Shown here piece after piece: positions 2,494 to 34,319 of a DNA stretch of 54,449 nucleotides. Position numbers and translations under genes: made by a program. Source of the DNA: Candidatus Moraniibacteriota bacterium (GTDB taxonomy: Bacteria > Patescibacteriota > Minisyncoccia > Moranbacterales > UBA1568); contig JBAXFX010000001.1 in assembly GCA_037139695.1 (NCBI GenBank), positions 1 to 54,449 of the forward strand, read 5' to 3'. Position 1 is the first letter of the stretch; each line of letters starts with the position of its first letter. The notes beneath the pieces are model-generated. The model made no database searches, was not told where the DNA came from, and saw only the letters and a program-made list of their open reading frames with translations.

Positions 2494-2505
2494 ATGTCAG
2501 CAATG

Positions 2506-4338
2506 TTATTTCCTTATTCGTATATTCACGTATGGATCCGAAACGATATAGTCGGTAAACAGATTCTTTTCGCGTATTCTTTTATACGCGGAATCGGCAT
2601 AGTGACTGTTATTGGAATTGATAACACTCCTTTGAAATTCGATTGTAGTCGAACACATGGCCGTAAGTCCGGCGTCATGAATCCTATACCGGACAAGTCG
2701 TTCCCTGATAGGCTTCGCCCTGAATCCCATACCAAGGAGTCTTGCCCAAAAATCCCAATCCTCAGGCACATGCCCATCACCGATCGGCCAGTCCCTATAT
2801 CCCCCGCCCTGCTTCCATGCGTTCCTGGAAAAGACTGCCGTAGTAGGAATGGCATTATGGATGAGTATTTTTTCAAAACTCGTATTTGATACGTCCCAGC
2901 CCCTATCCGAATTTCCAAAAAACTGAAGACTCGAATACAGTATGTCATACTTTTCGCCCTCAAGTATTCTTAGGGCTTTTTCGAAATAAGAGGGCTCCAA
3001 CATATCATCCGCATCGAGACAACATATATATCTGCCACGTGCCTTCCTTATTCCGTAATTCCTGTTGTCTCCGACCAGATGTCGTCCTTCCCGAAAAAAT
3101 ATCCGTGTTTTCGGTTTTCTGAGAGCCTTCAATGTTCTCCTGGTGACACCGTCGGTCGAACCTCCGTCGACAACGATTATTTCGATATTTTCCACAGTTT
3201 GCACGAGGACCGAGTCTATGGCGGACTCGACATATTTTCCGTAATTGAAACAAGGGATGACAACACTTATGACTGGGTCGCCGTCCGGAATCCTCTCATT
3301 GACGACTTTTATTTTCCCCATGCGGAACAAAATATTTTTTTTGAAAAGAAACGCCATCTCGGAACAAAGGTCCCTCGTCCAAAATCCTATCGGGTACTTT
3401 TGTTTGATCCGTATATATAGGCTCCTGGTTTTCCAAAACAGAAAAGCCGTCACTCCTTTCGTTATGAAGGATTTCCCGAACAGGGCGCGGTTTTTTCTCA
3501 CAAACCCCCACCAACGGTCGGCACCGCCGATGCGTACGTTGATCCATGGCTTCTCACCGGTAAAATGAAGAACGGAGGCGTCATAGTGGCAATCGGCCAC
3601 ATCCTGGCTCGTCAATATTCCGTCCGCTACCAGATTCGGATAGTGAGGACCGCCGACCAAACCGGAAAATACGTTATATTTCGCCGGCAAATATCCGATC
3701 ATCCCCCGACAGCTGATATTCAGTATATCTTGATCCTGATAGACGAATAATTCCTTCGCCAGTTCCTCCCATCTTCTTTCCATTCCTGATTCCCTCATCT
3801 TCCCTAAGTCCATCACCATAAATCCGGCATTGAAATACTCCCCTCTCAGCCCGTCGAAATTTTTTTTGAAATATTCGTATGATCGCAGATGCCGATCGAA
3901 ATTATTCTTGTAGTTTACAAAGGGATCCCTTACTGCCGCCAAAAGGCGGCCTTCCAGATCGGTTTCCCATACAGCAGAGATATCTTTCAGAAACAGGATA
4001 TCCGAATCCGCATATATCACCTTGTCAATACCGGTCAAAAGCCCCGGCAAGGAAAGTCTGAAATAAGATGCCTCGGATATCCCCCTCGATACAAAGGCAT
4101 CCTTGAACCTATCATCCATCGCGAGAAATTCGATGTCCGAATCCTTCCCGGCCACATCCACGATGTGTCCCAATTCACGACGGTCACTCTCTGAAACATC
4201 CTTGGCACATACGCAGAATATCGCGTAATCCGCCTTTCCGTATGAACAACGCAAAAGACTGGCAATGGCAACCCCGGCCTGTCTGTAAAAGGCATGATCG
4301 AAACAAAAAACGATGTTCACTTTCCGCGTTACTGACAT
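2506..4338 (-). CDS. Two-domain glycosyltransferase: N-terminal GT8-like fused to C-terminal GT2
   Basis: 610-aa ORF. The N half has GT8-like 'NIVFCFDHAFYRQAGVAIASLL', 'YADSDILF' and 'FNAGFMVMDL'. The C half has GT2 'ISVVIPCFNYGKYVESAIDSVLVQT..IEIIVVDGGSTDG' and 'CLDADD'. Confidence 0.8.
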   Translation of the reverse strand: MSVTRKVNIVFCFDHAFYRQAGVAIASLLRCSYGKADYAIFCVCAKDVSESDRRELGHIVDVAGKDSDIEFLAMDDRFKDAFVSRGISEASYFRLSLPGLLTGIDKVIYADSDILFLKDISAVWETDLEGRLLAAVRDPFVNYKNNFDRHLRSYEYFKKNFDGLRGEYFNAGFMVMDLGKMRESGMERRWEELAKELFVYQDQDILNISCRGMIGYLPAKYNVFSGLVGGPHYPNLVADGILTSQDVADCHYDASVLHFTGEKPWINVRIGGADRWWGFVRKNRALFGKSFITKGVTAFLFWKTRSLYIRIKQKYPIGFWTRDLCSEMAFLFKKNILFRMGKIKVVNERIPDGDPVISVVIPCFNYGKYVESAIDSVLVQTVENIEIIVVDGGSTDGVTRRTLKALRKPKTRIFFREGRHLVGDNRNYGIRKARGRYICCLDADDMLEPSYFEKALRILEGEKYDILYSSLQFFGNSDRGWDVSNTSFEKILIHNAIPTTAVFSRNAWKQGGGYRDWPIGDGHVPEDWDFWARLLGMGFRAKPIRERLVRYRIHDAGLTAMCSTTIEFQRSVINSNNSHYADSAYKRIREKNLFTDYIVSDPYVNIRIRK

Positions 4339-6632
4339 ACGTTTCTTTTGCTCGGCTTTCTTATCTTGTCCGCGAATAACCCAAAGAAATTCTCACTGAC
4401 CGCCTTAAGCTCTCCAAGGCGACTTCGTAATCGTTTCTTTTCGGTCACGGATTCCCCTTGGACGAGAGCTTCTCTGATATTTTCGGAAGAGAACTCGCCT
4501 ATCTCCGCGATCTGTAGCAATTTATTTCGTAGAACGTCGGAAAGACCCCGGGACTTACGTTCATAATAGTCGCTTTTGTGCAGAGCGATGGCCGGAACCC
4601 CCGAGTAGAGGGAAAAAAGCGTGCCGTGATAGCTCGTAGTAATGACCACGTCCGCCGATTCGATCATGTTCCGGAATTCGCTATAACTATCGGCTTTGGG
4701 ATGTCTCTCTCCGATATGTGTTCCCAATGAATCGCAAATGCCGTCGAAACTCCGACTTTCACTCACCCATTTCCCATCCATCATACTGAAGAAAAAAATC
4801 TCGTACTGATCCGGGTCTTCCGAAACGAACCGGTGCAACTTCAGCAACAAGTCCCCATACTCGCCATCGGAAGTCTCCAGATAATCATCCGCCCTGAAAT
4901 TGATGCCGATCCTCCTCTTGCCGGATCCCTTGATGCTATTTTCTTTCGGCCGATCCATTTTCTTTTCGTCGAACAACGCGATAGTATCATCGAAAGAAAA
5001 AGTCAGATTGGGAATCCGTTCCTGCCAAATCGTGTCACGCGTCCCAAAGAGAGGACTGTGCCTGCATATCGAACCCATTTCTTTCTCCTGATCCGGTAAG
5101 AATGGTCCGAGGCCCTGGCCACTGAAAACGATTCTTTCGTAAGGAACACCGAACGAAACGGCCTCCCGTAAAAGCCAGATCTTCTGGTCGTACCAATACT
5201 TATTCAAGTATCCGCCACCATAGTAATGGATAAGGGCCACGTCTTTGGATACAATCGCTTCTGATCGGAAAAATTCCCTTACATTCTTCCTATAGCAAAA
5301 ACCGTCCGGAATCATCGGCGGATTTTCGGTAAAAATAACAACCTTATATCTGATCCCGTATCCCCTGTAGAATTTTTTTGCCACGGCAAGAATACTTTCG
5401 TCTCCAAGATTCCCCCAACCGCCATCTCCTCCGATCAACAGTATGTATTTTCTGATCCTTGCGAATCTCAAGACGCTGTTCATCAGATATCTGAATGTAC
5501 GTTTCTTGGCCAAAAGATACCCCCTACCCTTATTCAGCAAGACTTTCCGTCTGGAAGCCGCTAACATACCTTCAACCGATCGTACGATATCGCCTTTTCC
5601 GAGTTCCCTACCCTTTTTCAAGATTTCTTCCCAAAACGACAACTGATACCCGGTATTTCCCAGATTGATCCTTTCAAGACTTTTCCGGTATCCCTTTTCC
5701 AGAAAAGCGTCCGCCTGACCAAGCCTACCAAACAGATCGAGACTGATCATTGTCCTGACACATTTCTCGCAAGTACAGCAGTTATATTTCTTGTCACGAT
5801 TCTCCCAACAAACCCGCAGGACATTCGCCACGTTTCCCGAAACGTATCGTTCTATTTTTTCGACACGAGTCGACTCCACCCCATCCTGAACGAATCGGAG
5901 GTGGTCCGTCGACCAGAGCTGATCGAGAAAGGGATGGGAACCGTGGGGTTCTATCTCGTTATATGCCAAAGAGGACGGTATGAATATCTTTCCGAATAAG
6001 CCTGAAAGGAGCAGGCCAACGGAACAAAGGAAACTACCTGAAACCGACTCCGCCCAGAAAGCCGACGCTGCCGTATCCGAAAACCCGAACCTGATATTCG
6101 TGACGACGGGAACAAGTCTCTTGCCGTACTCACGTGCGACCTGCCCGGCCTTTTGCACCGTCTCCTCCCAGATAGGATCATCTTCCTTATTCAAACCGAT
6201 ATCGAGTCCTCTCACCAGGATTAGATGGGTTATTTCGTCCTTATTCTTAAGCAGCGTATAAAACGAATCTACTCCTCCGGAAAAGAAGCTCCCGACAAAT
6301 CCGTTACCATCGTTCCTTTCGTCGCCCGCTCCGGCGTGAATCCGTATCCTGTTCAGCTCACTATTACCGAGGACATGACACCCGATGATATCCTCAATGG
6401 AACGGAGCAGTTTCCCGGAGATACTTCCGTCAATAAAGATATCCTCCCCCTTCCACATACAATCAATTAACGTCGCCGCGATGAACGGCTCTGGTCCCAC
6501 GGCAACCTCTTGATCGGGAGAAAAGACACAGAACCACAGCGTCCTGACCTCGGTTTCGCCGTCATACCTGATATCGGCGGAAACTTCCACATATTCCCGT
6601 TCTCGCTTTTCCCGTATGTTCGATATGTTCAT
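4329..6632 (-). CDS. Fusion protein: N-terminal PP-loop (SGGxDS) ATP-pyrophosphatase-like domain plus C-terminal polysaccharide pyruvyl transferase domain
   Basis: 767-aa ORF. The N half has 'FFSGGVDSFYTL' (PP-loop) and a Cys cluster 'NCCTCEKCVRT' reminiscent of QueC/ExsB-type enzymes. The C half has 'LLIGGDGGWGNLGDESIL' and 'ITTSYHGTLFSLYSGVPAIAL', typical of CsaB/PssM-type pyruvyl transferases. Confidence 0.65.
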   Translation of the reverse strand: MNISNIREKREREYVEVSADIRYDGETEVRTLWFCVFSPDQEVAVGPEPFIAATLIDCMWKGEDIFIDGSISGKLLRSIEDIIGCHVLGNSELNRIRIHAGAGDERNDGNGFVGSFFSGGVDSFYTLLKNKDEITHLILVRGLDIGLNKEDDPIWEETVQKAGQVAREYGKRLVPVVTNIRFGFSDTAASAFWAESVSGSFLCSVGLLLSGLFGKIFIPSSLAYNEIEPHGSHPFLDQLWSTDHLRFVQDGVESTRVEKIERYVSGNVANVLRVCWENRDKKYNCCTCEKCVRTMISLDLFGRLGQADAFLEKGYRKSLERINLGNTGYQLSFWEEILKKGRELGKGDIVRSVEGMLAASRRKVLLNKGRGYLLAKKRTFRYLMNSVLRFARIRKYILLIGGDGGWGNLGDESILAVAKKFYRGYGIRYKVVIFTENPPMIPDGFCYRKNVREFFRSEAIVSKDVALIHYYGGGYLNKYWYDQKIWLLREAVSFGVPYERIVFSGQGLGPFLPDQEKEMGSICRHSPLFGTRDTIWQERIPNLTFSFDDTIALFDEKKMDRPKENSIKGSGKRRIGINFRADDYLETSDGEYGDLLLKLHRFVSEDPDQYEIFFFSMMDGKWVSESRSFDGICDSLGTHIGERHPKADSYSEFRNMIESADVVITTSYHGTLFSLYSGVPAIALHKSDYYERKSRGLSDVLRNKLLQIAEIGEFSSENIREALVQGESVTEKKRLRSRLGELKAVSENFFGLFADKIRKPSKRNVCQ

Positions 6633-6823
6633 AAATCTCTCATAAACCGGATCTAGCCCCTGCCCCTTTCAAAAAGAGGCTTCGTCCGTTTATCAAAAAA
6701 TATTCCTCATCCGATCGGTTATCCGTTCCTTCTCCATATTCTATACTATGTATCGGCTCTTTTCCAGCTCTATTTTTTCCAAGGCATGGAGCCAAAAAAC
6801 ACGGCGCATCCAAAAAAATCCGT

Positions 6824-6865
6824 CATGAAAAACGCGAAAGCCCATACCGTTTTCCCGGTATGGGC
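6824..6865 (-). terminator. Rho-independent terminator downstream of ORF 6887..7495
   Basis: 10-bp stem gcccataccg/cggtatgggc (6840..6865) with a 6-nt loop, followed on the minus strand by 'tttcgcgttttt'. Confidence 0.7.
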
Positions 6866-6886
6866 CACGTTTGTCCTGTCGATGTC

Positions 6887-7495
6887 TTATCGCGTCAGGG
6901 CGGGAATCACCCTGTACCGATCCAATAATCTTTCGAATTCCGGCTTGATATTCTTGATCCGAAGCTTATCATAATCAGGCCCGCCATAAACCTCATGTCT
7001 CAACAAAAGATCAAGGAAATCGAACCGCTCCGACGGGTCACATTCTCGGATCCGATCAAGGCTCTGCGATTGGATTCTCGTGACATGCATCTTGGAATCG
7101 TATGCGACGGACCCGGTATTGATCGCGGCTGAACGGATCGACACCGATAGGAATATGGAACATTCCTTGCCCGAGACTTTTTTCAGAAAAGCGATCGCTT
7201 CCTCGGCGATTCCCTTCAACCGGGCATACACCGTCCCTTCGCAGAGTACGACCACTCCGGATCCCAAAAACACGTTTGACCAGGCCATGTTTCCATGCCG
7301 ATTACCAAGCCCTAAGACAGCCTCGGCGGATATCTTCTCCGCCAGGCCCCGACAGAACGATTCATCGTACGGCTCATTCAGGAACGGGCCGTGAACGGTT
7401 TCGAACCCGTCTTCGATATACCCTTTCAGGCCGAGGACGCGGTCGAGCAGTTCCGGAAGTTCCGTCGTGATGACTCCACGTTTTTCATGTATCAT
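6887..7495 (-). CDS. Hypothetical protein (202 aa), no recognised domain
   Basis: Long ORF with a purine-rich 'agagagggg' upstream of the ATG and its own terminator. No motif recognised. Confidence 0.6.
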   Translation of the reverse strand: MIHEKRGVITTELPELLDRVLGLKGYIEDGFETVHGPFLNEPYDESFCRGLAEKISAEAVLGLGNRHGNMAWSNVFLGSGVVVLCEGTVYARLKGIAEEAIAFLKKVSGKECSIFLSVSIRSAAINTGSVAYDSKMHVTRIQSQSLDRIRECDPSERFDFLDLLLRHEVYGGPDYDKLRIKNIKPEFERLLDRYRVIPALTR

Positions 7496-12038: not shown

Positions 12039-13991
<1,953 letters not shown>

Positions 13992-14103
13992 GTCAGAAGA
14001 ATCAAAAAATGAAGAACCTTTAGAATAGAGAAAAAAGCAAAAAGAGGCAAACTCACACCAGACCCAATCTTCTCATATGGTCGAGCCCTCGATACCACGT
14101 CAA

Positions 14104-15267
14104 TTATCTATTTCCCTTCGCGCGATTGTGCGTCTTACAAAGCATCTGACAATTCTTTTCCGAAGTCGCGCCGCCCTTGCTCCACGCCGCCACATGATCA
14201 GCATCCATTTCATCCGCCTTCCACATTTTTTCCTTGTTCGCATCATGTCCCATCGCGCACAGCGGACAGTTCGAAACCCCTTTCTTTTCCGCAACGGCGG
14301 TCTGTTTCGCATAGACGGACTTCTTGGTCGCTTCGTCGAAAATCCTGACCTCAAGCAATTTCGTGTCAGTGGAACCACCGAGTACATATTCGAAGACTCC
14401 CTTGCGATTCTTGATATACGGGTCACCGTAGAGCGCGCGCACCTCGTCCGACACTTTCGCGGGGTCGTAGGCATCCTTGTGATACGTCTCGTACAGCCGC
14501 CCCCATTGCAGTCCGCGCATCTCGCTCTCCACATCCGTAAACACGCCCGACACCCAGTCGATCACGGTATTGAAATACGTCTTTACCTCTGCGATGGTCG
14601 TGTCGAATCGATGTCTGCTCATATACTCACCGATTTCTCCGCGGCTCACCCACTCGAGCGCCCGTTCCCAGAAGTCCTGACGATTGGCACTCCCTGATAC
14701 ATATGCGCTCCATTTCTGGATATTGGCGTTTCCGCTATTACTGAATTCTTCCTTGCCGAGCGTGATAAAAGGACCGGAATAAACGGCGTTCAACAATTCC
14801 TGCGTGTTCAGAGGCACGCCCGCAATATTGATCGTCTTGAACCATTCCTTGATTTCGCTCTCTTCCCCTTCACACTCATAGATGAGCAGCTTCGTTTCCA
14901 TAATCAAAGCCCTCTTATCAGCAGCCATACCGGTAAAGTTCTGCGGCAACCCGTTTTCGTCTTTGAAGGCGAATTTATCGTTAACGAATCGTCCGACACT
15001 GGTGATGCGCTGCTGTCCGTCCAATACCTCGTATATCCCTTCACTCACGGTATTGAAATAGATGAGTCCGAGCGGATACCCCTTCAAAATCGACTCGATA
15101 ACCGCGACATCCCGCTTGCCGTCGGCATAGATATAATTTCGCTGATACTCCGGCTGAATAGTAAGCTTGCCGGCCAAACCGAACAGTCCCTTACCCTCAA
15201 GCTCGTTATACACGAACCCGTCGCAGATATCTTTCACGGTGATGTCGGTCCTCAGTGTCGTTTTCAT
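14104..15267 (-). CDS. DUF262 (ParB-like NTPase/nuclease) domain protein with C-terminal HNH nuclease; GmrSD-like type IV restriction candidate
   Basis: 387 aa. DUF262 hallmarks '[11 protein letters not shown]' and 'LDGQQRITS'. C-terminal HNH '[32 protein letters not shown]'. Confidence 0.85.
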
Positions 15268-15279
15268 ACGATATGATCA

Positions 15280-16329
15280 TCAATTATTCGTACCGCCCTT
15301 CCGTTCCTTTTTTACTTTTTTCTCCAACATCGTGATACGTTCCAGATATTCCTTCTCGACCGGAGAAAGGGTCTTGGCCTGATATTTCCGGTATTCCATT
15401 TCGGCTTTTTCCATCGCTTTTTCGTGTGTCACCGTTCCGGCACCGGAGAGGACGCCTTCTCCATACTCGGAAAGCAGTTTGTCCAGTGCCGCGATATGCT
15501 CCGTCATACGCATCGCTTGCCGATTCATGGCGCGCAATTCGGCCAATTCGAAATATGCCGAAACGAACCTGTTCAGTTTCTCCAATTCCTCGGCAGACAG
15601 ATAATTCTTGGCAATCCTGACTTCTTCCAATACGGGCAAATCCCCCGCGAAAGCCGTCAAACCCATGAATTCCTTGCCACTGTCGGCGCGATTGAAAATG
15701 ACTTCCGCCGCCGTCTGTTTATGCGCGCCATAATGCAGTTTGTTCTGTACGATTTTGAAAAACTCTATCGAGTGCAGGGATTTCGGATCATAATCGACGC
15801 TGGTGGCATACAGGTCCAGAACCTGCCGATACAGCATCTTTTCGCTGGACCGTATGTCTCGGATGCGGGACAGCAGCTTTTCCCAATACCGACCGCCACC
15901 GTTGTTTTTCAAGAATTCATCATTCATCGAGAACCCCTGAACGAGATATTCCTTCAATCGTTCGGTCGCCCACACGCGAAATTGCGTGCCTCGCAATGAA
16001 TTCACGCGATAGCCGACGGAAATGATGGCGTCGAGGTTATAGAGCTTCGTCGGTCGATTTATCTCTCTTTCACCCTCTTTTTGAACTACCGAGGATTTCT
16101 CGGATGTTCGATTCTCTTGTAATTCTCCCTCCGAATATATATTTTTCAAATGCAATCCGACATTATCCGCCGAGCAACCGAAAAGCTCCGCCATCTGCTT
16201 TTGCGAAAGCCACACGGTCTCGCCTTCGACACGCACCTCGATGCCAGGGGCACCGTCCGCACCCGTATAGATGATCACTTTGCCGTGATCATCCACGTCC
16301 GATGTTTTTTTCCTATTTTGCGTATTCAT
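15280..16329 (-). CDS. RhuM family virulence/defence-island protein
   Basis: 349 aa. 'VWLSQKQMAELF', 'YNLDAIISVGYRVNSLRGTQFRVWATERLKEYLVQGFSMNDEFLKN' and 'YRQVLDLYATSVDY' match my recollection of the RhuM (PF13310) family. Confidence 0.8.
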   Translation of the reverse strand: MNTQNRKKTSDVDDHGKVIIYTGADGAPGIEVRVEGETVWLSQKQMAELFGCSADNVGLHLKNIYSEGELQENRTSEKSSVVQKEGEREINRPTKLYNLDAIISVGYRVNSLRGTQFRVWATERLKEYLVQGFSMNDEFLKNNGGGRYWEKLLSRIRDIRSSEKMLYRQVLDLYATSVDYDPKSLHSIEFFKIVQNKLHYGAHKQTAAEVIFNRADSGKEFMGLTAFAGDLPVLEEVRIAKNYLSAEELEKLNRFVSAYFELAELRAMNRQAMRMTEHIAALDKLLSEYGEGVLSGAGTVTHEKAMEKAEMEYRKYQAKTLSPVEKEYLERITMLEKKVKKERKGGTNN

Positions 16330-16393
16330 AACCGTTCATCAAAATGACAACAAACCCAGCGCGTCTCGAAAATAGCGAGGGAAGCGTCGGGGT

Positions 16394-17245
16394 TCATGAT
16401 GCAATCAAATCAAAGTTCATATTTTTAAGTTTAGAATCAAAGAATAAAATCTCTTCGCCTTTTTTTGTTCGAAAAGCCGTGTGAGTCAAATTGAATTCAT
16501 AGCTATTTTTAACAAATGCGTAAATGTTTTTTATTTCTGCCGCGTTGTCATAAGAAACTATCCAATGAATTTTTTTTATTTTTTTAATTTCTTGGGACAC
16601 CTTTTTATGATCATCGTTGTTATAAGAATTTTTATAAAGCCGTGGACCTTTTAAGTAATAAGGAGGATCAAAATAGAAAATGGTATTTGCATTATTTGAT
16701 TCTTCTTTTATTTTCTTGATTAATTCCAAAGCGTCCTCATTGAACAGTCTTATATTTTTCCTATGTTTCGCGATGAGCCGTATTCTTTTAATAAGCTCTT
16801 CTTTATTGAAACGGCAATCCATTTTATAATTTCCGCTCTGCTCAAGTCCACCGATAACTCCAGCGTCCATGATGCCCGAACGGTTTGTCCTGTTCAGAAA
16901 TAAAGTCGAGAACCCCAGTTCCAAGATATCGGCGTCATTTTTCCTTTTCTGAATTTCCCTCATTTTCAACCAATTTTCGATATTTACATCCGTTTTTTCT
17001 ATCAAATCACATATTTTATTTGTTCGATTCAAAACAGAGTACCAAAAGGCATAAATGGAACGATCGTAATCATTTATCGTGATTCTATCTACTTTGTCTT
17101 CCAGCAATAAATACAAAGCCACTGAAGCCCCCCCGGCATACGGCTCTACATAATGCCCACGGATATTGTTATCAACGCAAATCTGGGCAATGAACTTTGC
17201 CAGTCTATTTTTTCCGCCAGGATATCTCAGTGGCGAGTAAAACAT
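16394..17245 (-). CDS. Dam-like (D12 class) N6-adenine DNA methyltransferase
   Basis: 283 aa. 'LRYPGGKNRLAKFI', SAM motif 'YVEPYAGGASVAL' and catalytic 'FYFDPPYY'. Strongly AT-rich coding sequence (about 32% GC in one hand-counted line from this patch). Confidence 0.85.
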   Translation of the reverse strand: MFYSPLRYPGGKNRLAKFIAQICVDNNIRGHYVEPYAGGASVALYLLLEDKVDRITINDYDRSIYAFWYSVLNRTNKICDLIEKTDVNIENWLKMREIQKRKNDADILELGFSTLFLNRTNRSGIMDAGVIGGLEQSGNYKMDCRFNKEELIKRIRLIAKHRKNIRLFNEDALELIKKIKEESNNANTIFYFDPPYYLKGPRLYKNSYNNDDHKKVSQEIKKIKKIHWIVSYDNAAEIKNIYAFVKNSYEFNLTHTAFRTKKGEEILFFDSKLKNMNFDLIAS

Positions 17246-17247
17246 AT

Positions 17248-18540
17248 TTATTTTTTCTGGGCTTTAAAATAAGTCTCAAGAATATCTCCTGTGACATATG
17301 ACATATTCATAACATCATTCTTAGAGACTATAACATTCCCATGTGCAAAATTTCCTAACAATGCGTCGAGGTTAAAATTTTTGTTTAAATAATCTGATGT
17401 TATACTTAAGTATCCATCAGTGTTTTTCTCAGCGTATTCTCGTTGGAACAACTTAATTAAATCTTTATATGGATTTTCTTGTTTGGCATTTGTAATATCC
17501 CCCTGCTTATTGTAATAGACCCTCGCCGCAACATCTAAAATTAGACGTAGAGACATCCCTACAATCAATAGAATCTTATCATCATCTCGTCCCTTTTTGT
17601 GGATTTTATCAATAGCAAGATACAAATCATTTACAGGACCCTTCTCAAGTTCAAGAATTCTCCCAAAAAGAATCTCGCTTCTTTTTGTTGCTGGTGTTTT
17701 TTGAAGTTTAATAAATTTATCCGTTCGCTCCTTACCGATCGAAATCTCTTCAAGATTTCCTTTTTTTGGATTTTTGAATATCTCACGAATTTGCTCGTCA
17801 TTATCAATTATTGATTTCAATTTTCCTCGGTTCTTTCGAGTAGATATTTCCTTCTTTTTTAAAGCATTCTGTGTTGCTTCAAAAATTTTCACAAGTTGTT
17901 CAGCGGAGTATTTGCTATACAGTTTACCTGATTTAAAATCAATTCCTATATCTTTGAGGTTTTTTTCATTCAAAACCTCGTCCTTTACAAATCTTTTATT
18001 TAAGATTTTATTTCCTTTTATAAATCCTGTCTGTTCATTAATCGCCACAAAAATAGATTTCGCTTCTTTTTTGAAATTCAACAAAAAATAATCTCTCTCA
18101 AGTTCTCCCCACGACCCATTATCGACATGTTTTCTTTCAATACTGGTAATAGCAGTATTTTCATCGCAAACATTACATGGAAGAGTGGTTTGATTCCTTA
18201 AAAATTCTGGTTCATATTCCCGAAACAACTTTCCGACGTACTTAGAATACTTGTCATCGTTCTGTATAACTTTCAGTAAAGCAACCCTCCTGTTGCCATC
18301 ATAAACCACGTACTTTCCATCCTTTTTAACAACTATTGGCAACTCTGAATAATCATAATACTCGCCCATTTTTTTCACCAGCCTTTGTATATTCCATTTG
18401 TTATCTGTATCTTGTATAATGCGATCGATTATCTCTTCATCCGTTTTTTCGGCGTCAATAGGATCTCTCGGATTCTCTGTCCAGAGATATAAATCTTTTA
18501 TAGGAATGCGTAAAATCTTTTGCATCATAACTCTAAGCAT
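17248..18540 (-). CDS. ParB/Srx-fold N-terminal domain protein with an uncharacterised C-terminal region of about 330 aa
   Basis: 430 aa. 'LRIPIKDLYLWTENPRDP' followed about 58 aa later by 'VVYDGNRRVALLKV', the ParB-type NPR...G-x-R-R arrangement. The start overlaps the stop of the upstream MTase by 1 nt (TAATG), and its stop is 2 nt from the Dam-like ATG. AT-rich. Confidence 0.6.
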   Translation of the reverse strand: MLRVMMQKILRIPIKDLYLWTENPRDPIDAEKTDEEIIDRIIQDTDNKWNIQRLVKKMGEYYDYSELPIVVKKDGKYVVYDGNRRVALLKVIQNDDKYSKYVGKLFREYEPEFLRNQTTLPCNVCDENTAITSIERKHVDNGSWGELERDYFLLNFKKEAKSIFVAINEQTGFIKGNKILNKRFVKDEVLNEKNLKDIGIDFKSGKLYSKYSAEQLVKIFEATQNALKKKEISTRKNRGKLKSIIDNDEQIREIFKNPKKGNLEEISIGKERTDKFIKLQKTPATKRSEILFGRILELEKGPVNDLYLAIDKIHKKGRDDDKILLIVGMSLRLILDVAARVYYNKQGDITNAKQENPYKDLIKLFQREYAEKNTDGYLSITSDYLNKNFNLDALLGNFAHGNVIVSKNDVMNMSYVTGDILETYFKAQKK

Positions 18541-19682
18541 TATCTCTTATGCCGAATAAAGATCCGCTTGAACGTCTCACTTCCATTTAGATAAGAGCCA
18601 CGCCCATAAACACCTTTTTGATCCTGATCAACACCTCGATTCGAGCCGATAATCTCGAACTGTTCTGGAGAATACTTATCAAGGAAGCTGATCGGGACTC
18701 CCATGACACCAGGGTAGTCACTTGGGATGGAGTCCGTAAACGAAACTTCAATGGCATCATAATTATCGTATGTGTCATATGTTGCTTTTCCCTTGATTTC
18801 TTTGTGCCTGCTATATTTCAAATTCTCTTCCATGGTCATGAGTGGCAACGGCTGATGGCGCCTTCCGTGGTCGAGTCGAGTGAACCAGCATGAGTTTCCG
18901 AGTCTCGTGTAGTCACCAACATACCCCAATCGGGCCGCTTTCTGCCTATCGCTCTCCGCGATTTCTGCACCATTCGGCACGGCGAAAACCATATCACTCC
19001 CATTCCCCGTCGCACCAAGCCACAGCTTGTTTTCCTTGATTTTTGGAAACACTTCCTTGTAGGTGATCGCGTTCATGTTGCCGATAATCACGAACTTCTT
19101 ATCGTACTCAAACAATTGCTTCACGTATTCACGGAAGAGCGAAAATGGCGGGTTCGTCACCACGATATCGGCTTGTTTCAATAATTCCACGCACTCCGGG
19201 CTCCTGAAATCGCCGTCTTCCTCGAGCGGTGCCCATTCATTATGCTTGTTCGCCTTCAACTGTTCGGCAATGTCTTTCAAATTATATTCACCATCGCCGT
19301 CGAAATCGCGCGCTTCGTTGATGATAAATCTGTTGGCGGTTATTTTCGGTCTCCCTTTTGGTTCTGCTGGTTTACTCAAAACTTTCTCTTCATACCCTTG
19401 GAAAAGGGACGCCTGTAATGCCAGTTCCGTACCGGCAATCGGCGACGGCTTAAAACTCGTCGTAATGAGCCGCTTCAATCCAAGCTTGTTGAAATTGATC
19501 ACGAAAAAACGGAAGAAATTGCTTTCGTAGGGATCGTCACAGTTGGAATACACCGTCTTGCCCCGAAACGCGTCGGGGTCGAAATCCAAATACGCCCCGA
19601 TTTCCTTTTGGATATCGTTGAATTGCGTATAAAACTCATCGTTTTTCGCCCGTTTCGCATTCGTGAGATTGCTGTTCGCCAT
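18540..19682 (-). CDS. EcoRI-family N6-adenine DNA methyltransferase
   Basis: 380 aa. The N-terminus 'NAKRAKNDEFYTQFNDIQKEI...KTVYSNCDDPYESNFFRFFVINFNKLGLKRL' closely resembles M.EcoRI as I recall it. Catalytic 'IVVTNPPFSLFREY'. Confidence 0.85.
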   Translation of the reverse strand: MANSNLTNAKRAKNDEFYTQFNDIQKEIGAYLDFDPDAFRGKTVYSNCDDPYESNFFRFFVINFNKLGLKRLITTSFKPSPIAGTELALQASLFQGYEEKVLSKPAEPKGRPKITANRFIINEARDFDGDGEYNLKDIAEQLKANKHNEWAPLEEDGDFRSPECVELLKQADIVVTNPPFSLFREYVKQLFEYDKKFVIIGNMNAITYKEVFPKIKENKLWLGATGNGSDMVFAVPNGAEIAESDRQKAARLGYVGDYTRLGNSCWFTRLDHGRRHQPLPLMTMEENLKYSRHKEIKGKATYDTYDNYDAIEVSFTDSIPSDYPGVMGVPISFLDKYSPEQFEIIGSNRGVDQDQKGVYGRGSYLNGSETFKRIFIRHKR

Positions 19683-19861
19683 AGCCGCCTTCAGGGTACC
19701 GGATCAGAATATATACGACAAACGTTTTTCCGCCTCGTCTCCATATTCAAACAATATCCTGTTTAAGCCAAAAAGACAAGAACCCTCCCAAAAATAAAAT
19801 GACTCTTTGTTGTATTTTGACCCCATAAAATTTCGAGTACGAAATCACGAGGCATGCTTTT

Positions 19862-19900
19862 AATTGTTCACTTCTCCGCTCCCTGACTTTCGACTTCCGA
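19862..19900. repeat. Short degenerate heptamer-periodic tract immediately 3' of murJ
   Basis: 'ttcactt|ctccgct|ccctgac|tttcgac|ttccgat' has 7-nt periodicity, in the same style as the tracts at 36451, 38793 and 39793. Confidence 0.35.
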
Positions 19901-21568
19901 TCACCACTCCCCTTTCTCCGGATGACCCTCGACCGACGGGACGACTTCCGGATTGCGGCGGACCTTGGACAGGATGAACTTCCAGAGCGAGCGTAGTTCG
20001 CTTATCTTAAACCAGTTGCCGAGGAGCAGGAAAGTCCCGAGACCGAGAAGGGTTCCGAAACTGAGCTGGAGGAACACTTTGAGGAACGTGTCGAGTGGCG
20101 ACATCGTAAAAAACGAGAACAGCGTTTTCGAAAGCTGGGCAACGATGCCGGCCAGAATCGCCGACAGAAAGATGAGCGCATTCTCGCGGAAGAACTGCGC
20201 GTCGTCCCATCCTTCGATCCGCTTCCGAAGCGCGAGCAGGAGAAAGAGAAAATTTGCCGCGCTCCCAAGCGAGAACGCCATAGCAAGCGCATCGGTGCCG
20301 TATCGCGGGAGGAGAAATATCGCCGACCCGACATAGATAGCCTCGCCGAGGATCGCGTAGAGAAAGGGCGTCTTCGAATCCTGTATCGCGTAGAACGCCC
20401 GAGCGAAGAGCGGTATAAGCGCCTGAGCGAAGAGACTGACGGAAAGCCATCCGAGTACACCGAACGTTGCCCTCGTATCGTCCCAGTCGAACCGGCCGCT
20501 CCCAAGGACGACCCGGACAACCTGTGCCCGGAAGACGACGAACAGCATGGCGACCGGAACGACGAAAAAGAGGATGCGCCTCGTCGTACGGGAGAGCGTT
20601 TCGAAAAACTCCCCGTTACGCTTCTCGGTCGCGGAGAACGAAAGTGTCGGGAAGGCGGCAAGCGAGAACGAGACCGCAAAGAGTCCGATCGGAATCGCCT
20701 CGATGTTCGAGGCAAGCGAAAAGATCGCGAGGCTCCCGGACGCGAGCATGGAGGCGAAGACCGTCGTTAAAAAAAGACTCAACTGGTTCGCCGCGATGCC
20801 AAGAGTGCGCGGGATCATAAGCATCACGACGCGCCGGACCGGCCCATCGAACCGAAGCGGGTGACGGAAAAGCGCAGGGAAAAACTTCCGGCTCCGCACC
20901 GATGGGATCTGCACCGACATGTGCAACAACGCGCCAAGCGCGACTCCCCACGCGAGCCCGGAAATACCGAATATCGGCACGAAAACAGTGATGCCGAGAA
21001 TGATACCGGCATTATAGATGATCGGTGCGAGCGAATAGGCCGTGAAACAACGGAAGGTGAGCAGCATCCCACCGAAGACCGCGCTTGCCCCGAGAAACAA
21101 CGGGGAAAGCAGCATGATCCGGGTCAGTTCGACGGTCATCGCGCGTTTCTCGTCGGAAAAACCGGGCGCGAGTACCGTCACGATGGCCGGTGCCGCGATA
21201 ATCGCGATGATCGAGACCGCGCCGAGCACGAGCAGTATCCACTCCAGGACGCCGGCCGCCAGATCAAGCGCCTCTTTCTTCTTCTCTTTCGAGATGAATT
21301 CCGTGAAGACCGGAACGAACGCCGCCGACAGCGCACCCATCACGAGCAGATTATAGAGGGTATCCGGGATGCGAAACGCGGCATAGTACGCGTCGAGCGT
21401 GTCGCCGGCACCGAAATGGCCGGCAAGGAGCCGGTCGCGGACAAACCCGAGCAGCCGACTCGCGATGCCGGCGGCCGCGATGACGAATGCCGCACCACCG
21501 ACCGTTTCCGACTGTGCATTTGCCAGGTTCCGCAGGAAGGCGAATTTCTTCTTCAGGAAAGACATCAT
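19901..21568 (-). CDS. murJ: Lipid II flippase MurJ
   Basis: Polytopic membrane protein. 'ASRLLGFVRDRLLAGHFGAGDTLDAYYAAFRIPDTLYNLL' is the MurJ/MviN N-terminal signature. The start is placed at MMSFLKK (21568) to avoid overlapping the upstream stop; the ORF extends to 21631. Confidence 0.9.
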   Translation of the reverse strand: MMSFLKKKFAFLRNLANAQSETVGGAAFVIAAAGIASRLLGFVRDRLLAGHFGAGDTLDAYYAAFRIPDTLYNLLVMGALSAAFVPVFTEFISKEKKKEALDLAAGVLEWILLVLGAVSIIAIIAAPAIVTVLAPGFSDEKRAMTVELTRIMLLSPLFLGASAVFGGMLLTFRCFTAYSLAPIIYNAGIILGITVFVPIFGISGLAWGVALGALLHMSVQIPSVRSRKFFPALFRHPLRFDGPVRRVVMLMIPRTLGIAANQLSLFLTTVFASMLASGSLAIFSLASNIEAIPIGLFAVSFSLAAFPTLSFSATEKRNGEFFETLSRTTRRILFFVVPVAMLFVVFRAQVVRVVLGSGRFDWDDTRATFGVLGWLSVSLFAQALIPLFARAFYAIQDSKTPFLYAILGEAIYVGSAIFLLPRYGTDALAMAFSLGSAANFLFLLLALRKRIEGWDDAQFFRENALIFLSAILAGIVAQLSKTLFSFFTMSPLDTFLKVFLQLSFGTLLGLGTFLLLGNWFKISELRSLWKFILSKVRRNPEVVPSVEGHPEKGEW

Positions 21569-21575
21569 AGGTTCA

Positions 21576-24047
21576 TCATTTCGTGGAAAGCACCGCACCG
21601 TAATAGGCATCCGTCGACAAGGTCGCATCAAACGAAAATCCCTGCCGGTCCCGATTCACCCCGTCGGAATGCCAATCGGCATTAAACCGGTCCGGAAAAG
21701 AAAACCTGGAATGAAGCGTACTCCCGTCGGTTCCCGACTGTTTCTGAAAAAGAATCGAATACGACGACGGATCGGCAGGTTGTGGCGAGACCCTGAACGG
21801 GAGACGGTACGTATATTCGACCGTCACGCTCTCCCCCGGGCTCACATAGACCCAGTTCCCGAACACCGTCTTCCCGGTCTCTTCCGAGATGCGCGTACCG
21901 CCCGGATCGACCGTTGTCGTGGACTCTTCCTTCACCACGTCATCGTCACGCTTGAACCCGAGTGCGTCATAGTCGAGCGGAGCCTTCGGAAACTCGTACG
22001 TCTGTCCGGACGCCGAGACAAGCTCGGAACCCTTGGGAACGTATACACGCATATAGTCCGAATTCACCTTGTTGAACCAATCATATGGCATGCCTCCCCC
22101 GGTATGTTTCCTGGTTATCCGAACCGTGTCAAGGACGGAGCCGTCCGATTGTACGACAGCCTGATGCTCGATCGTCTCGCGTATCACGGCGTCGGTCTTG
22201 TATCCATTGAGGTTGGTATGGACCACGCTCAGGTAATCACGTGGCGTATCGAGCATCCTCCCCGACCAGCCGGCCTGATCGATCAGCTTTTCCACGTCCG
22301 CGTTCCGGGAATACAGCAAGATATCCTTCTCGTTGAGTGCCTGGGAAAACGTATTGGCAAGCGAAACCAACATGGACGCGCTCCGGAGCGAGAACAACCG
22401 CTCGAGCAGGACGGGCGCGAGGTCGGAAAGGATTCTCTTCGGTTGGTTGAGAGTATGGTCGTAGTTCTCTTCGACTTCCGCCTGAATCGCCTGTGAAAAA
22501 TTATCCGCGTCGATCGTCACGCCGTAATCCGGCATCTCGATAGGACCCGTTAACACAAGCAGGTCCCGAAGCACGTTCGGCGTAAGCGTGACGATACCGT
22601 CCACGGTCGGACCACCGGTCTTCTCATAGAAGAACATCGCTTTCTCCGCCGAGGTCGGAAAATCCGGCCACCAATTGCTGTCATGGAGGCTCCAGCCCGC
22701 ACTCACCTTCTGTATCGGCGCCGGCGGAACGATATTCTCCTTCAGCTGCCCGTCCGGATTGAAAATCCCATCAACAAAGAGCTTCCCGATGTGACCGTTA
22801 TCCACTTTCAAAAGGCCGTAGCTTCCGATGAACCCGCCGGTCGGTCGAAGTTCGGCGTTGTTCTGAAAGAGGAACAGATACACGCGCGGTCCGTTCGCGC
22901 CCAGGAGTTCCCGGACCAGATGGGAATTTCCGTTGAAACCCTCGAGCACTGTCGCGATCACAGGCAATTTCTCGCGAATGGAAAGGAAGGTCGCCCGCTT
23001 GTCTTCCGGCACATCCTCGGGGCGGACCCGGGCGAACGCCCCTTGTGCCGCCACGACTTCTTTTTCCGCCGTCGACGATCCCTGCTCCGCCTTGTCGATA
23101 AGATCAAGAAATGATACGTTGCCACTTTTGACGGCATCGGTCGGCGATGCAGGCAGAAGCTCGAGTATCCCGCTCATGGCGACCCCTGCCGCGGAAAGAT
23201 GCTTGGCGCCCTCGAGCAACCCCTGATCGGAAGCGACTGAAGAAAGTCCCGGGATAAATCGTGCCGCCTTCGCAAGTTCATTGCCTACAGCACCAAGCGA
23301 GTCCGATGCCGCAGAGAATGTCTTGTACGCCTCGGAAAAATTTTTCGACGAGCCGGAAAAGTTTGCGCTCGTCAGATCGTTCATCGCCTGGGACGCGAGC
23401 GACGCGCCCTCGATACTTTCCCCGAGCACCTCGCCCTTGATGACGGTCAGGCGATATGCCCCGAAGGCGCCGCCGCCAAGCACGAGTACGATCGCAAAGA
23501 CAATCGCCGTCCGACGGATAAGCGTATCGGAAACAGCTATCGGTATGGGTTGAAACCGAAAGAAAGTCGGCATCGAAAATTTCGCGTCCCGAAACGAGTC
23601 GTATGCGTCCGACAATCGTCGGAAGAACCCTCCCTTCGCCGACATCGTGGAGTTCGATTGTCTTTCCTGTTCCGGTTCCGGCTCGCATGTCTCGATAGCC
23701 GGTTCCTCATCCGTTACCGTATCCCACGGTTCTTCTTGGCCGTCCCGACTTTCTTCTTCTACGAAAACGGAAGGTCGCCCATCGAGCTCGGCATGAAACA
23801 GCGGTCGATAAATCCGCTCAGCGTTCGGGAGTCGTGTACTGAATTCCTGTTCGGCCGGCGTATCAAACCGCTCAATCACCTCTGATTTCTCGAACACGGG
23901 AGTCTCATCCATGACAACCTCCCCATAGCCCTCTTTGCGAGGTGAGCCGACGGCATCGATCCGCTCCCAATCCAAAGCACCCGACCGGTTGGTCGGTCGG
24001 ACATCGAACATCTGCGGGATAATATGCTTTCTCGATTTCGATTCCAT
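21576..24047 (-). CDS. DUF4012 domain membrane protein with a long acidic, disordered N-terminal region
   Basis: 823 aa. A TM segment around residues 185-205. 'YLFLFQNNAELRPTGGFIGSYG' matches the DUF4012 hallmark as I recall it. Confidence 0.7.
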   Translation of the reverse strand: MESKSRKHIIPQMFDVRPTNRSGALDWERIDAVGSPRKEGYGEVVMDETPVFEKSEVIERFDTPAEQEFSTRLPNAERIYRPLFHAELDGRPSVFVEEESRDGQEEPWDTVTDEEPAIETCEPEPEQERQSNSTMSAKGGFFRRLSDAYDSFRDAKFSMPTFFRFQPIPIAVSDTLIRRTAIVFAIVLVLGGGAFGAYRLTVIKGEVLGESIEGASLASQAMNDLTSANFSGSSKNFSEAYKTFSAASDSLGAVGNELAKAARFIPGLSSVASDQGLLEGAKHLSAAGVAMSGILELLPASPTDAVKSGNVSFLDLIDKAEQGSSTAEKEVVAAQGAFARVRPEDVPEDKRATFLSIREKLPVIATVLEGFNGNSHLVRELLGANGPRVYLFLFQNNAELRPTGGFIGSYGLLKVDNGHIGKLFVDGIFNPDGQLKENIVPPAPIQKVSAGWSLHDSNWWPDFPTSAEKAMFFYEKTGGPTVDGIVTLTPNVLRDLLVLTGPIEMPDYGVTIDADNFSQAIQAEVEENYDHTLNQPKRILSDLAPVLLERLFSLRSASMLVSLANTFSQALNEKDILLYSRNADVEKLIDQAGWSGRMLDTPRDYLSVVHTNLNGYKTDAVIRETIEHQAVVQSDGSVLDTVRITRKHTGGGMPYDWFNKVNSDYMRVYVPKGSELVSASGQTYEFPKAPLDYDALGFKRDDDVVKEESTTTVDPGGTRISEETGKTVFGNWVYVSPGESVTVEYTYRLPFRVSPQPADPSSYSILFQKQSGTDGSTLHSRFSFPDRFNADWHSDGVNRDRQGFSFDATLSTDAYYGAVLSTK

Positions 24048-31335: not shown

Positions 31336-31529
31336 TCTTAGTATCTATCTCAAATCTCAACGCCTATATAAGGCAAAAAATCCGCTTGCCGGCTGAAATC
31401 CGAAAATTTCGGCTGCAAACCATTCAAAAATCGTCAGGTTACAATAGTAGCCCTCCTCATTTTTCATTGTTTTCGCGCGAAATTTTCGGATTTGCAGCTC
31501 GACATGAGATTTGAGATAGATACTTAGAG
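31336..31529. repeat. Repeat family 2: long imperfect palindromic element (about 190 nt)
   Basis: Left arm 'tcttagtatctatctcaaatctca' (31336..31359) plus 'gctgaaatccgaaaatttcg' (31392..31411) is the reverse complement of right arm 31478..31529. The right arm recurs at 17..68. Confidence 0.8.
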
Positions 31530-31546
31530 TATTTTCTTTTCTTTTT

Positions 31547-32575
31547 TCACTTTACACTTTTCGCTTCCTTTTCTTTCCCATACTGCTTCCCATAATATTC
31601 CCTGTACGCCCCGCTCTTCACGTCTTTCCACCACTCCTCATGCGTCTTGAACCATTCGACCGTCTGCCGGAGCCCCTCGTCGAGCGTGACGGACGGCTCC
31701 CAGCCGAGTTCGTTCCTGATTTTCGAGAAATCGATCGCATACCGACGGTCGTGTCCGGGCCGATCCTTCACGTATTCGATCTTCTCTTCACCGAAGCCAA
31801 GAATGTCGAGCAATGTCCGCACGATGGCGAGATTCTCCCTCTCACCGTTCCCGCCGACGCAATAGGTTTCCCCGATCCGTCCCGTACGGAGCACGAGATC
31901 TATCGCCCGGCAATGATCCTCCACATGGAGCCAGTCGCGGACCTGTTTTCCATCACCGTATACCGGCACGTTCTTCCCTTCCAACAGGTTCGTGATCGCT
32001 AGCGGGATGAGTTTTTCCGGGAAGTGATAGGGGCCGTAATTGTTCGAACAGTTGGAAATCGTCACCGGCAGACCGTAGGTATGGAAGTAGGCGCGAACAA
32101 GATGGTCCGAACCGGCCTTTGACGCGCTGTACGGACTGCGCGGATCGTACGGGGTCACCTCCGAGAACGGCGCATCGTTCGGCCCGAGCGCGCCGAACAC
32201 CTCGTCCGTCGAGACATGATGGAACCGCTTCCCGCGATGGTTTCGCGCCGCGTCCAACAAGACCTGCGTCCCGATCACGTTCGTCCTTACGAATGCCGCC
32301 GGCTCCATGATGGACCGGTCCACGTGCGACTCGGCCACGAAATGGACGGCCGTGTCGCATTCGGCCATGAGTGGCTCCACCGCCTTCGGATCGGCGATAT
32401 CCCCCTTCACGAACCGCAGCCGCGGATTCCTTTCGGCCTCTTTCAGATTTTCCAGATTCCCCGCATACGTGAGGAGATCGAGCACGACCACTGAATCGTT
32501 CGGGTGTTCCCGCAACACGTGATGCACGAAATTCGACCCGATAAACCCCGCCCCGCCGGTGACAAGCAGTTTCAT
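31547..32575 (-). CDS. rfbB: dTDP-glucose 4,6-dehydratase
   Basis: 'MKLLVTGGAGFIGSNFV', 'SPYSASKAGSDHLVRAY' (YxxxK) and 'NCSNNYGPYHFPEKLIP'. Confidence 0.95.
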   Translation of the reverse strand: MKLLVTGGAGFIGSNFVHHVLREHPNDSVVVLDLLTYAGNLENLKEAERNPRLRFVKGDIADPKAVEPLMAECDTAVHFVAESHVDRSIMEPAAFVRTNVIGTQVLLDAARNHRGKRFHHVSTDEVFGALGPNDAPFSEVTPYDPRSPYSASKAGSDHLVRAYFHTYGLPVTISNCSNNYGPYHFPEKLIPLAITNLLEGKNVPVYGDGKQVRDWLHVEDHCRAIDLVLRTGRIGETYCVGGNGERENLAIVRTLLDILGFGEEKIEYVKDRPGHDRRYAIDFSKIRNELGWEPSVTLDEGLRQTVEWFKTHEEWWKDVKSGAYREYYGKQYGKEKEAKSVK

Positions 32576-32631
32576 AGTAATTTCCTCTTTACGATTCTAT
32601 ATCCATTATTCCTCAGCAATTTCGTCGTTTC

Positions 32632-33606: not shown

Positions 33607-33743
33607 TCATCTTAAACAATGCTTCTGCAATTGCGATCCAAGACGAGTTACCAAAGAGAATTCATGGAGACACTAAGTACCAAAATGACGTTCATTATCA
33701 CCCACCATGATATACCAACCTTGAGCAAAATGTCTGTGCAAGA

Positions 33744-34319
33744 CTACACCAAAAATTTCAACTCATCCCACCGCGTCGGGTCGGATTGCAAGGATGTGAG
33801 CGTTGGGTGATGTTGATCTTTCTCGGAAACGGTCAATCCTTCGTGAAGCGGCCAGTCGATGCCGAGCGCCGGATCGTCCCAGAAGATGCCGCGATCATGT
33901 TCCTTCGAGTAGACATTCGTACACTTGTACGAGAAAATCGTATCCGGTTTCGTGGTGAGCATGGCGTGTGCGAAGCCTTCGGGAATATAGAACTGCCGAT
34001 GATTCTCCTCTGAAAGCGTCACCGCGACATGTTTCCCGAAGGTCGGCGAATCGCGACGGATATCCACCGCCACGTCAAACACTTCTCCCGCGATGACGGC
34101 GACGAGTTTCCCCTGCGTGTATGGGATCGTCTGATAGTGGAGTCCACGCAAGGTGCCCGCCGGTTTGGAGAACGAGATATTGTCCTGCACGAAATCGGGC
34201 AGGCCGAGATCGCGATACCGCTCCAAACGATAGGTCTCCTCGAAATAGCCTCGCTCATCCCCGAACACGTCGGGCTCGATGATGATGACTCCCGGGATAT
34301 CGGTCTCGATTATATTCAT
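33744..34319 (-). CDS. rfbC: dTDP-4-dehydrorhamnose 3,5-epimerase
   Basis: 'FGDERGYFEETY', 'QDNISFSKPAGTLRGLHYQ', 'KLVAVIAGEVFDVAVDIR' and 'IPEGFAHAM'. Confidence 0.95.
   Translation of the reverse strand: MNIIETDIPGVIIIEPDVFGDERGYFEETYRLERYRDLGLPDFVQDNISFSKPAGTLRGLHYQTIPYTQGKLVAVIAGEVFDVAVDIRRDSPTFGKHVAVTLSEENHRQFYIPEGFAHAMLTTKPDTIFSYKCTNVYSKEHDRGIFWDDPALGIDWPLHEGLTVSEKDQHHPTLTSLQSDPTRWDELKFLV

Follow-up and report, generated by a model that had tools for sequence, protein, structure and literature searches.

PrrC in EcoprrI, an anticodon nuclease kept inactive within a type I system, is the classic example of an embedded defense gene. Genetic embedding of defense genes has been reported for BREX, DISARM, type I RM (restriction-modification) and Hma (bioRxiv 10.1101/2024.01.29.577857). 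PD-lambda-5 (Vassallo et al. 2022), a two-gene system of Escherichia coli ECOR7 that PADLOC and DefenseFinder list, is described as 'ParB/HEPN, methyltransferase' and protected E. coli against most of the phages tested; its cloning host required an mrr deletion, and this requirement suggests that the PD-lambda-5 methylase is active (PMC9519451). Here, we analyzed a stretch of 54,449 nucleotides (nt), referred to as the window, from a metagenome-assembled genome of Candidatus Moraniibacteriota (assembly GCA_037139695.1, contig JBAXFX010000001.1, positions 1-54,449). In this window the genes for a ParB-like protein and a Dam-like DNA methyltransferase (MTase) lie, together with a RhuM gene, between an EcoRI-family MTase gene and a gene for a DUF262-HNH nuclease. 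The reading that we consider probable is a nested one, in which a ParB-like/Dam pair of the PD-lambda-5 type and RhuM would be embedded in the junction between the modification gene (M) and the restriction gene (R) of a type II RM operon. Gene identities, pairings, nesting, composition and horizontal exchange could each be demonstrated, by comparison with loci and genomes of relatives that are referred to by L-numbers (L001, L093 and so on).

The ParB-like/Dam pair and the surrounding M and R genes

The Dam-like protein (283 amino acids [aa], 16394..17245, minus strand) is an N6-adenine DNA MTase of the D12 class with a DPPY motif, identified by Pfam PF02086 (5e-20) and TIGR00571 (2e-17), and its catalytic motifs, EPYAGGASV and FDPPYY, are intact. 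Against the PADLOC model PD-Lambda-5_B (PDLC04018) it scored 8.2e-117, with residues 2-277 placed on positions 4-277 of the 291-position profile; a canonical plasmid-borne PD-lambda-5_B scored 1.5e-119 on the same model, so the protein of the window scores as well. Immediately upstream, the PD-lambda-5_A-like protein of ParB/Srx fold (426 aa, 17248..18528, minus strand; the open reading frame [ORF] runs to 18540, giving 430 aa) matched 22 PADLOC PD-Lambda-5_A models at 2e-16 to 1e-3, some of which cover residues 5-313. An earlier note on this DNA had proposed, as one of two readings, an unconventional restriction or defense module with the ParB-fold protein as effector or sensor. This proposal was right in that both proteins match the A and B components of the catalogued PD-lambda-5, but the three genes that it joined do not form one system. 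Judged by sequence, membership of PD-lambda-5 is solid for B but, within A, only for the N-terminal half.

Relatives of the ParB-like protein were examined in 79 species-level genomes, and in 77 of these a Dam-like gene is no more than two to three genes away. It is directly downstream on the same strand in 57 of the 79, with a gap of at most 20 nt in 56, and convergent in 13. The pair is hosted by Patescibacteria, Bacteroidota, Proteobacteria, Actinobacteria, Spirochaetes and DPANN archaea, and relatives of it are found in prophages and plasmids. The pair might be non-immune: a selfish or regulatory cassette made of an orphan Dam-like enzyme and a DNA-binding ParB-family regulator that would tune how the operon around it is methylated or expressed, or the remnant of a phage or plasmid anti-restriction methylase module. 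ParB-family proteins can be regulators, as proposed for DndB (PMC10853773), related Dam-like genes occur in prophages and plasmids, and PHROG families of unknown function match the N-terminus of the ParB-like protein. We nevertheless hold this reading to be highly unlikely, since the pair matches an experimentally validated defense system, its motifs are enzyme-like and invariant, AAA_15/OLD-type ATPases (22/79) and RM, Fic, RhuM and Abi genes occur together with it, and the window is without phage or plasmid genes.

The company that the pair keeps varies from locus to locus. Where an AAA_15 (OLD/Gabija-like) ATPase joins it, as in those 22 genomes, the ATPase gene lies between the two genes, upstream of them or convergent to them (e.g., L005/L014, L013, L016, L020, L021-L024 and L049-L054), and PADLOC PDC-M38A looks like a fusion of ParB and AAA_15. 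Some prophages carry a pair of AAA ATPase and Dam without a ParB-like gene; a Streptococcus prophage and Citrobacter phiNP, considered as sources of canonical PD-lambda-5, were rejected on these grounds. DpnI-family enzymes cut methylated GATC. A DpnI-family gene is the downstream neighbor of the pair in one locus among L006-L085, which suggests that the Dam-like MTase of that locus does not methylate GATC.

Upstream of the pair, the EcoRI-family MTase (380 aa, 18540..19682, minus strand), an N6-adenine DNA MTase with an NPPF motif, is identified by Pfam PF13651 (8.9e-121) and PADLOC MTase_II (3.9e-101). The DUF262-HNH protein (387 aa, 14104..15267, minus strand), which joins a ParB-fold DUF262 domain bearing DGQQR to an HNH nuclease and is the presumed R of the operon, matches PADLOC REase_II PDLC03418 over its full length (1.5e-81) as well as Pfam GmrSD_N (7.7e-22) and HNH (7.7e-07). 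The EcoRI-family MTase gene immediately precedes the DUF262-HNH gene in 64 of 74 informative related metagenome loci, mostly at a distance of -4 to +4 nt; in the other 10 the two are held apart, once by a gap and otherwise by inserted genes. By contrast, only 2 of 63 other loci have an EcoRI-family MTase as the upstream neighbor of the ParB-like/Dam pair. Because of these adjacencies, the EcoRI-family MTase belongs with the DUF262-HNH nuclease and not with the ParB-like protein.

These counts bear directly on the model of the earlier note, taken here as one restriction-like system of MTase, ParB-fold protein and MTase in which the ParB-fold protein would be the nuclease and both methylases would be protective. 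The genes of the trio are closely spaced, and the trio recurs in L001/L007, L006 and L093. However, a DUF262-HNH gene also lies downstream in every one of these trio loci, the MTase is paired with DUF262-HNH in the absence of any ParB-like gene in the 64 of 74 loci, the EcoRI-family MTase precedes the ParB-like gene in just the 2 of 63, and L102 swaps out the pair and keeps both M and R. We therefore find the model scarcely credible, and the methylase sandwich does not stand as a unit. The accompanying remark that no classical restriction endonuclease is present is correct inside 16394-19682, but the same gene string continues to the DUF262-HNH nuclease at 14104-15267, whose HNH superfamily is a classical one.

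Homologues of the DUF262-HNH protein number more than 8000, and no solved or characterized relative of the nuclease was found. Because some homologues are labelled 'McrA', it may be, as far as such labels go, that this nuclease is modification-dependent instead of being blocked by cognate methylation. The best 120 homologues span Patescibacteria, Chloroflexi, Cloacimonadota and Bacteroidota at an identity of 80% or more. The MTase diverges faster than its DUF262-HNH partner (64% for the same genome pair), and it has a hypervariable segment of ~30 aa ahead of the conserved C-terminal 'RIFIRHKK'. The idea that this segment travels with the cassette was rejected, the variant seen in the window being present also in loci with other cargo.

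Nesting, composition and horizontal exchange

From 12 to 22 kb, the minus strand of the window carries seven genes, murJ through lepA, and the interval between these two holds a 5.8-kb defense island. Host genes border it on either side: murJ (19901-21631, minus strand) is the first in order and lepA (12039-13991, minus strand) the last. The five island genes are all on the minus strand with intergenic gaps of 2-64 nt. Between Dam and R lies the gene of the RhuM-family protein (349 aa, 15280..16329, minus strand), a second embedded candidate defense gene, which matches Pfam PF13310 at 1.2e-99 and PADLOC PDC-S05 at 6.6e-140 and is found at the same position in L006, L093, L102 and L178. The 218-nt intergenic region from murJ to the first island gene (19683..19900, minus strand) is the sole sizeable non-coding gap upstream of the island and the presumed promoter region of the five-gene string.

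At the border of M and the pair, the earlier note had described a 1-nt overlap of stop and start in TAATG. The TAATG is there, at 18538-18542 on the minus strand, but its ATG is probably not the start codon. The NCBI call for the ParB-like protein on this contig is 426 aa (P0001), homologues are 419-431 aa long, and the junction reads 'TAA TTTTGAGATT ATG AAA CAA' in L001 and L006 and 'TAA TGCTTAGAGTT ATG ATG CAA' in the window. Because of these three observations, the start is most likely the ATG at 18528, 11 nt past the MTase stop, an operon-tight spacing without the 1-nt overlap. Within the pair, the ParB-like stop is indeed 2 nt from the Dam-like ATG, with 'AT' between them; this junction, which reads TAAATATG, is kept in L001 and L009 and conserved in three different contexts.

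The embedding recurs in relatives. L001/L007, another Patescibacteria genome, has the M-ParB-Dam-R string beside dnaG and rpoD and without RhuM, and in L001 Dam overlaps R by ATGA. In L006 the string is accompanied by RhuM and an NYN gene. Within the clade of ParB-like proteins of at least 65% identity, the pair lies between type III mod and res in L009, and in L008 it follows an Eco57I-like MTase and precedes Fic and a T5orf172-ResIII helicase. More distant members of the pair follow type I S subunits or, in several genomes, immediately precede type I hsdR. The M-R slot, empty in 64 of the 74 loci and filled in 10, in turn receives other cargo, PADLOC candidate defense genes among it: PDC-S22 (KilA-N), PDC-S13 (Bro-N), PDC-S45 (trypsin-like), PDC-S46, PDC-S57 (T5orf172), AbiU/AIPR, HEPN_AbiU2, RhuM and several ORFs without a match. 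Among the occupants between MTase and DUF262-HNH are ORFs of 193-279 aa at L114:1985-2824, L167:2739-4213, L173:1891-2493 and L092:3536-4117, which have no Pfam or PADLOC match and are candidate defense genes.

Composition follows these borders. The flanking host genes are GC-rich (lepA, GC 0.58 and GC at third codon positions [GC3] 0.75; murJ, 0.59 and 0.74), and the M, RhuM and R genes have GC of 0.472, 0.49 and 0.51 and GC3 of 0.57, 0.59 and 0.65, respectively. The ORF of the 430-aa protein has GC 0.330 and GC3 0.30, and the Dam-like gene 0.346 and 0.37. Thus, the earlier note was correct that 16394..18540 is AT-rich (GC 33-35%, compared to 47% for the EcoRI-family MTase and ~58% for lepA/murJ) and that the compositional break is abrupt: per-gene GC and GC3 show it to be sharp, with edges at the junction of M with the 430-aa ORF and at the Dam stop. 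The break marks the borders of the embedded pair. Across the relatives, 70 of 72 genomes show a higher AT content in the ParB-like/Dam pair than in the flanking 5 kb on each side (Wilcoxon p 2e-13), the median difference being 6.6 points and the difference exceeding 10 points in 20 of the 72. The same bias sets the inner pair apart from the outer RM genes in L001 and L004. The break is therefore a trait of the module wherever it is found and not peculiar to this locus. Such a module-wide bias is as expected of often-transferred accessory genes, and the pair has an evolutionary history of its own. Of the earlier suggestion that the cassette is phage-derived, the foreign character is upheld by this bias, but no phage genes surround the module here.

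The island itself has moved recently. The block from 13795 to 19687, which comprises the five genes and the first ~200 nt of lepA, is 96.0% identical in DNA to L093/L095 over 5.9 kb and ends at 19687; outside it, the rest of lepA is 79.7% and murJ 70.6% identical to the same relatives. This difference between island and flanks indicates that the whole island was recently exchanged between diverged Moraniibacteriota, with one breakpoint in the 5' end of lepA. A second comparison resolves a smaller unit. The close relative L102 has M, RhuM and R at the same locus beside lepA, with 84-87% DNA identity to those of the window. The similarity breaks off at 18651, within the 3' end of the MTase gene, and is restored from 16397, at the Dam stop. 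Unrelated AT-rich genes take the place of this variable cassette slot (16397..18651) in L102. The slot of L102 (L102:487-2528) holds a 222-aa ORF, a split ORF with RNQLAH (Rx4H, HEPN-type) and a T5orf172/PDC-S57 gene, all AT-rich, the first three without a PADLOC match.

Scans of 13900-20000 found neither direct nor inverted repeats at the flanks and no att-like site or integrase, and the only tRNA of the window, at 46037, is not near the cassette. A transposon- or integron-like insertion was rejected for these reasons. Since the cassette is bordered by neither repeats nor an integrase nor a tRNA, it was most likely carried by homologous recombination through the conserved RM genes.

Close to the lepA breakpoint, the LepA of the window (650 aa) has a low-complexity insertion in its GTPase domain (~13693-13795), which is lacking in the 626-aa LepA of L093; the LepA of L102 (655 aa) has a different, repeat-rich insertion at the same place. 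Elsewhere in the window, other lower-GC stretches (0.41-0.49) at 1-7000 and 31500-34300 are clusters of glycosyltransferase, pyruvyl-transferase and dTDP-rhamnose genes, and a 324-aa ORF at 32632-33606 (GC ~0.41) is without a Pfam match.

The ParB-like protein and the proposed mechanism

At the level of sequence searches the 430-aa protein is inconspicuous: it has no Pfam match at E<=0.1 (no ParBc, GmrSD_N or GmrSD_C) and no NCBIfam match, and a sequence search of the PDB with the profile of its family returned nothing meaningful. Its homologues number 1290 at E<=1e-3 in 90% clusters, all annotated hypothetical, and at the 50%-identity level they form 951 clusters, 151 of them at E<=1e-30. Invariant across the family are LWxENPR and DGNRR in the N-domain (the ParB-type arginine motif known from ParB CTPases), a PCNxC...RKH...W segment, and R328, R336 and H396 near the C-terminus.

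The AlphaFold model of the protein (pLDDT [predicted local distance difference test] 84) agrees with the ParB fold named in the earlier note. In Foldseek searches, its N-domain matched ParB/Noc CTP-binding domains and sulfiredoxin with a probability of about 1.0. It is not a partition-type ParB, an identity that the note had weighed, because partners and C-terminus differ: no ParA is encoded in the neighborhoods of the compared loci, where the constant partner is the Dam-like MTase, and only the N-domain resembles ParB structures, the C-terminus being a different helical bundle. Modelled alone, the C-terminal 140 residues gave an all-helical bundle with pLDDT 90 and pTM (predicted template modeling score) 0.87. 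A relationship between the two ParB-fold proteins of the island was also considered and rejected, as no similarity of the ParB-like protein to the DUF262-HNH protein was detected (hhalign, 0.6% probability).

Phage and plasmid collections gave no tblastn match to the 430-aa protein, and the Dam-like gene was therefore used to reach canonical PD-lambda-5 loci. A canonical pair from a Vibrio plasmid (A 7e-190, B 1.5e-119) was used for building an A profile. In hhalign, the family matched the 32 canonical PD-lambda-5_A proteins with 97.8% probability (E 7e-13) over 168 columns, residues 9-182. A helix with SLRxxLD and a loop with YxHG were noted by eye in both A families; the spacing from R to H in SLRxxLD...YxHG is 68 residues in the family of the window and 74 in the canonical one, and from H to the C-terminus 30 and 32 residues, respectively.

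From these features we propose the following course of events. The five genes would be co-transcribed from the 218-nt region upstream of M, and the EcoRI-family MTase and the DUF262-HNH protein would act as an ordinary type II RM system. On the model of PD-lambda-5 in E. coli and of other ParB/DUF262 defense proteins, the Dam-like enzyme would mark host DNA at a motif of its own. The ParB-like protein may engage DNA, and sense that it is unmarked, through its nucleoside triphosphate (NTP)-binding ParB domain, in which GNRR is intact, and the adjoining conserved Cys/His domain, and could then act on unmarked invaders through the helical C-terminal domain that bears the conserved R and H, with DNA nicking, nucleotide hydrolysis or RNA cleavage as candidate activities. 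The embedded pair would in this way provide an independent, methylation-marked second layer of defense.

Several observations weigh against this nested arrangement of two autonomous systems. On the sequence side, only residues ~9-182 of the 430-aa protein show statistically solid homology to PD-lambda-5_A, and hhalign of the C-terminal halves of the two A families gave E 0.02 and 2% probability. The top PDB matches of the C-terminal domain in Foldseek are HepT/HEPN toxins, but weak ones (E 0.6-3, TM-score 0.45-0.48), a domain-only structure search did not bring the HEPN match to significance, and the canonical HEPN Rx4-6H motif is absent from this domain. A consensus promoter scan of 13900-20000 gave background-level matches only, the 218-nt region included, and terminator and repeat scans of the same interval were likewise at background level, without mobility repeats; because no promoter, terminator or mobility repeat stands out, co-transcription and the mode of insertion are steps that we infer. 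The sources consulted contain no experiment on this ParB-like subfamily or on any defense system of Patescibacteria or DPANN archaea. Finally, the pair joins the host M and R genes at conserved, tight junctions (10-11 nt, and the ATGA overlap in L001), which could mean more than passive embedding.

This last point is the strength of a different reading, in which the pair would not be autonomous but tied to the RM system of its host as a guard, e.g., as a back-up effector, like PrrC, that the RM proteins keep inactive and that is freed when a phage anti-restriction protein disables them. In the clade of at least 65% identity, the pair always follows the host MTase gene by 1-11 nt and precedes the restriction gene, and does so in three unrelated RM types. 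M-ParB-Dam-R is moreover inherited as a block, the window and L001 being 80% identical in R, 75.5% in Dam, 75% in ParB and 64% in M, and the fold matches of the C-terminal domain are HEPN-like, as in PrrC-type effectors. Set against this, roughly five in six loci of the family have no RM gene as immediate neighbor, PD-lambda-5 protects E. coli as a two-gene clone, and the pair has a methylase of its own, which would be superfluous for a pure guard. We thus regard a guard as unlikely. A related reading sees a dedicated cargo slot, exchanged by recombination, at the M-R junction in small RM operons of types II and III, with the pair functionally wired to RM either as a methylation-marked second layer or as a guard set off when RM is neutralized. 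It would account for the tight junctions kept across three RM types, and we hold it to be just as doubtful. The nested model, with the pair as a self-contained module, remains the one that we favor.

Comparison with described defense systems

Read as nested, the locus is one known system inside another and not a new three-gene system, which corrects a tempting misreading of its gene order. It adds Patescibacteria and DPANN archaea to the hosts of PD-lambda-5-type modules, and it shows that two-gene type II operons, and type III operons in relatives, also host embedded defense genes.

Compared to the DUF262 nucleases GmrSD, BrxU and SspE, the 430-aa protein similarly combines a ParB-fold NTP-binding N-domain with a C-terminal effector domain in a defense context related to DNA modification. 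In contrast to these nucleases, its effector domain is an all-helical bundle and not a His-Me finger, and it is paired with a methylase. It also differs from GmrSD-like type IV systems (DUF262 + DUF1524) in that it matches neither GmrSD_N nor GmrSD_C.

The outer operon has the features of a type II RM system of an EcoRI-family (PF13651) MTase and a DUF262-HNH nuclease: both genes are full-length, with the motifs NPPF in one and DGQQR and HNH in the other, and they lie on the same strand with M before R. In the window, three genes and 3.27 kb separate M from R, unlike in the 64 of 74 loci where the two adjoin or share 4 nt.

The inner pair resembles PD-lambda-5 in its two co-directional genes with A upstream of B, here separated by a 2-nt spacer, and in a B that is a Dam-like D12 MTase with a full-length match to PD-Lambda-5_B. 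Its A protein likewise has a ParB-type N-domain (LWxENPR, GNRR) followed by a conserved C...RH...W...R..F region, and the motif pair SLRxxLD...YxHG in the C-terminal domain; relatives of both occur in prophages and plasmids. It differs in that A is about 90-100 aa shorter (426 compared to about 500-530 aa), that the C-terminal half of A is not demonstrably homologous, that A has no Pfam match whereas some canonical members match PF02195, and that the host is a bacterium of the candidate phyla radiation (CPR), with the pair inside a type II RM operon and not in a prophage hotspot. The compact 426-aa A protein, with its model at pLDDT 84, may be convenient for studying how the ParB fold acts in PD-lambda-5.

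The arrangement as a whole compares most directly with 'guilt by embedding' (Payne et al., bioRxiv 2024), in that a PD-lambda-5-like pair and RhuM/PDC-S05 lie between modification and restriction genes. The search space of that approach is hereby widened beyond type I, BREX and DISARM, and slot occupants without a PADLOC or Pfam match become cheap candidates for new defense genes. Two features set the locus apart from the described cases: the host is a two-gene type II operon, or a type III operon in relatives, and a complete methylase-containing system is placed within another methylase-containing system.

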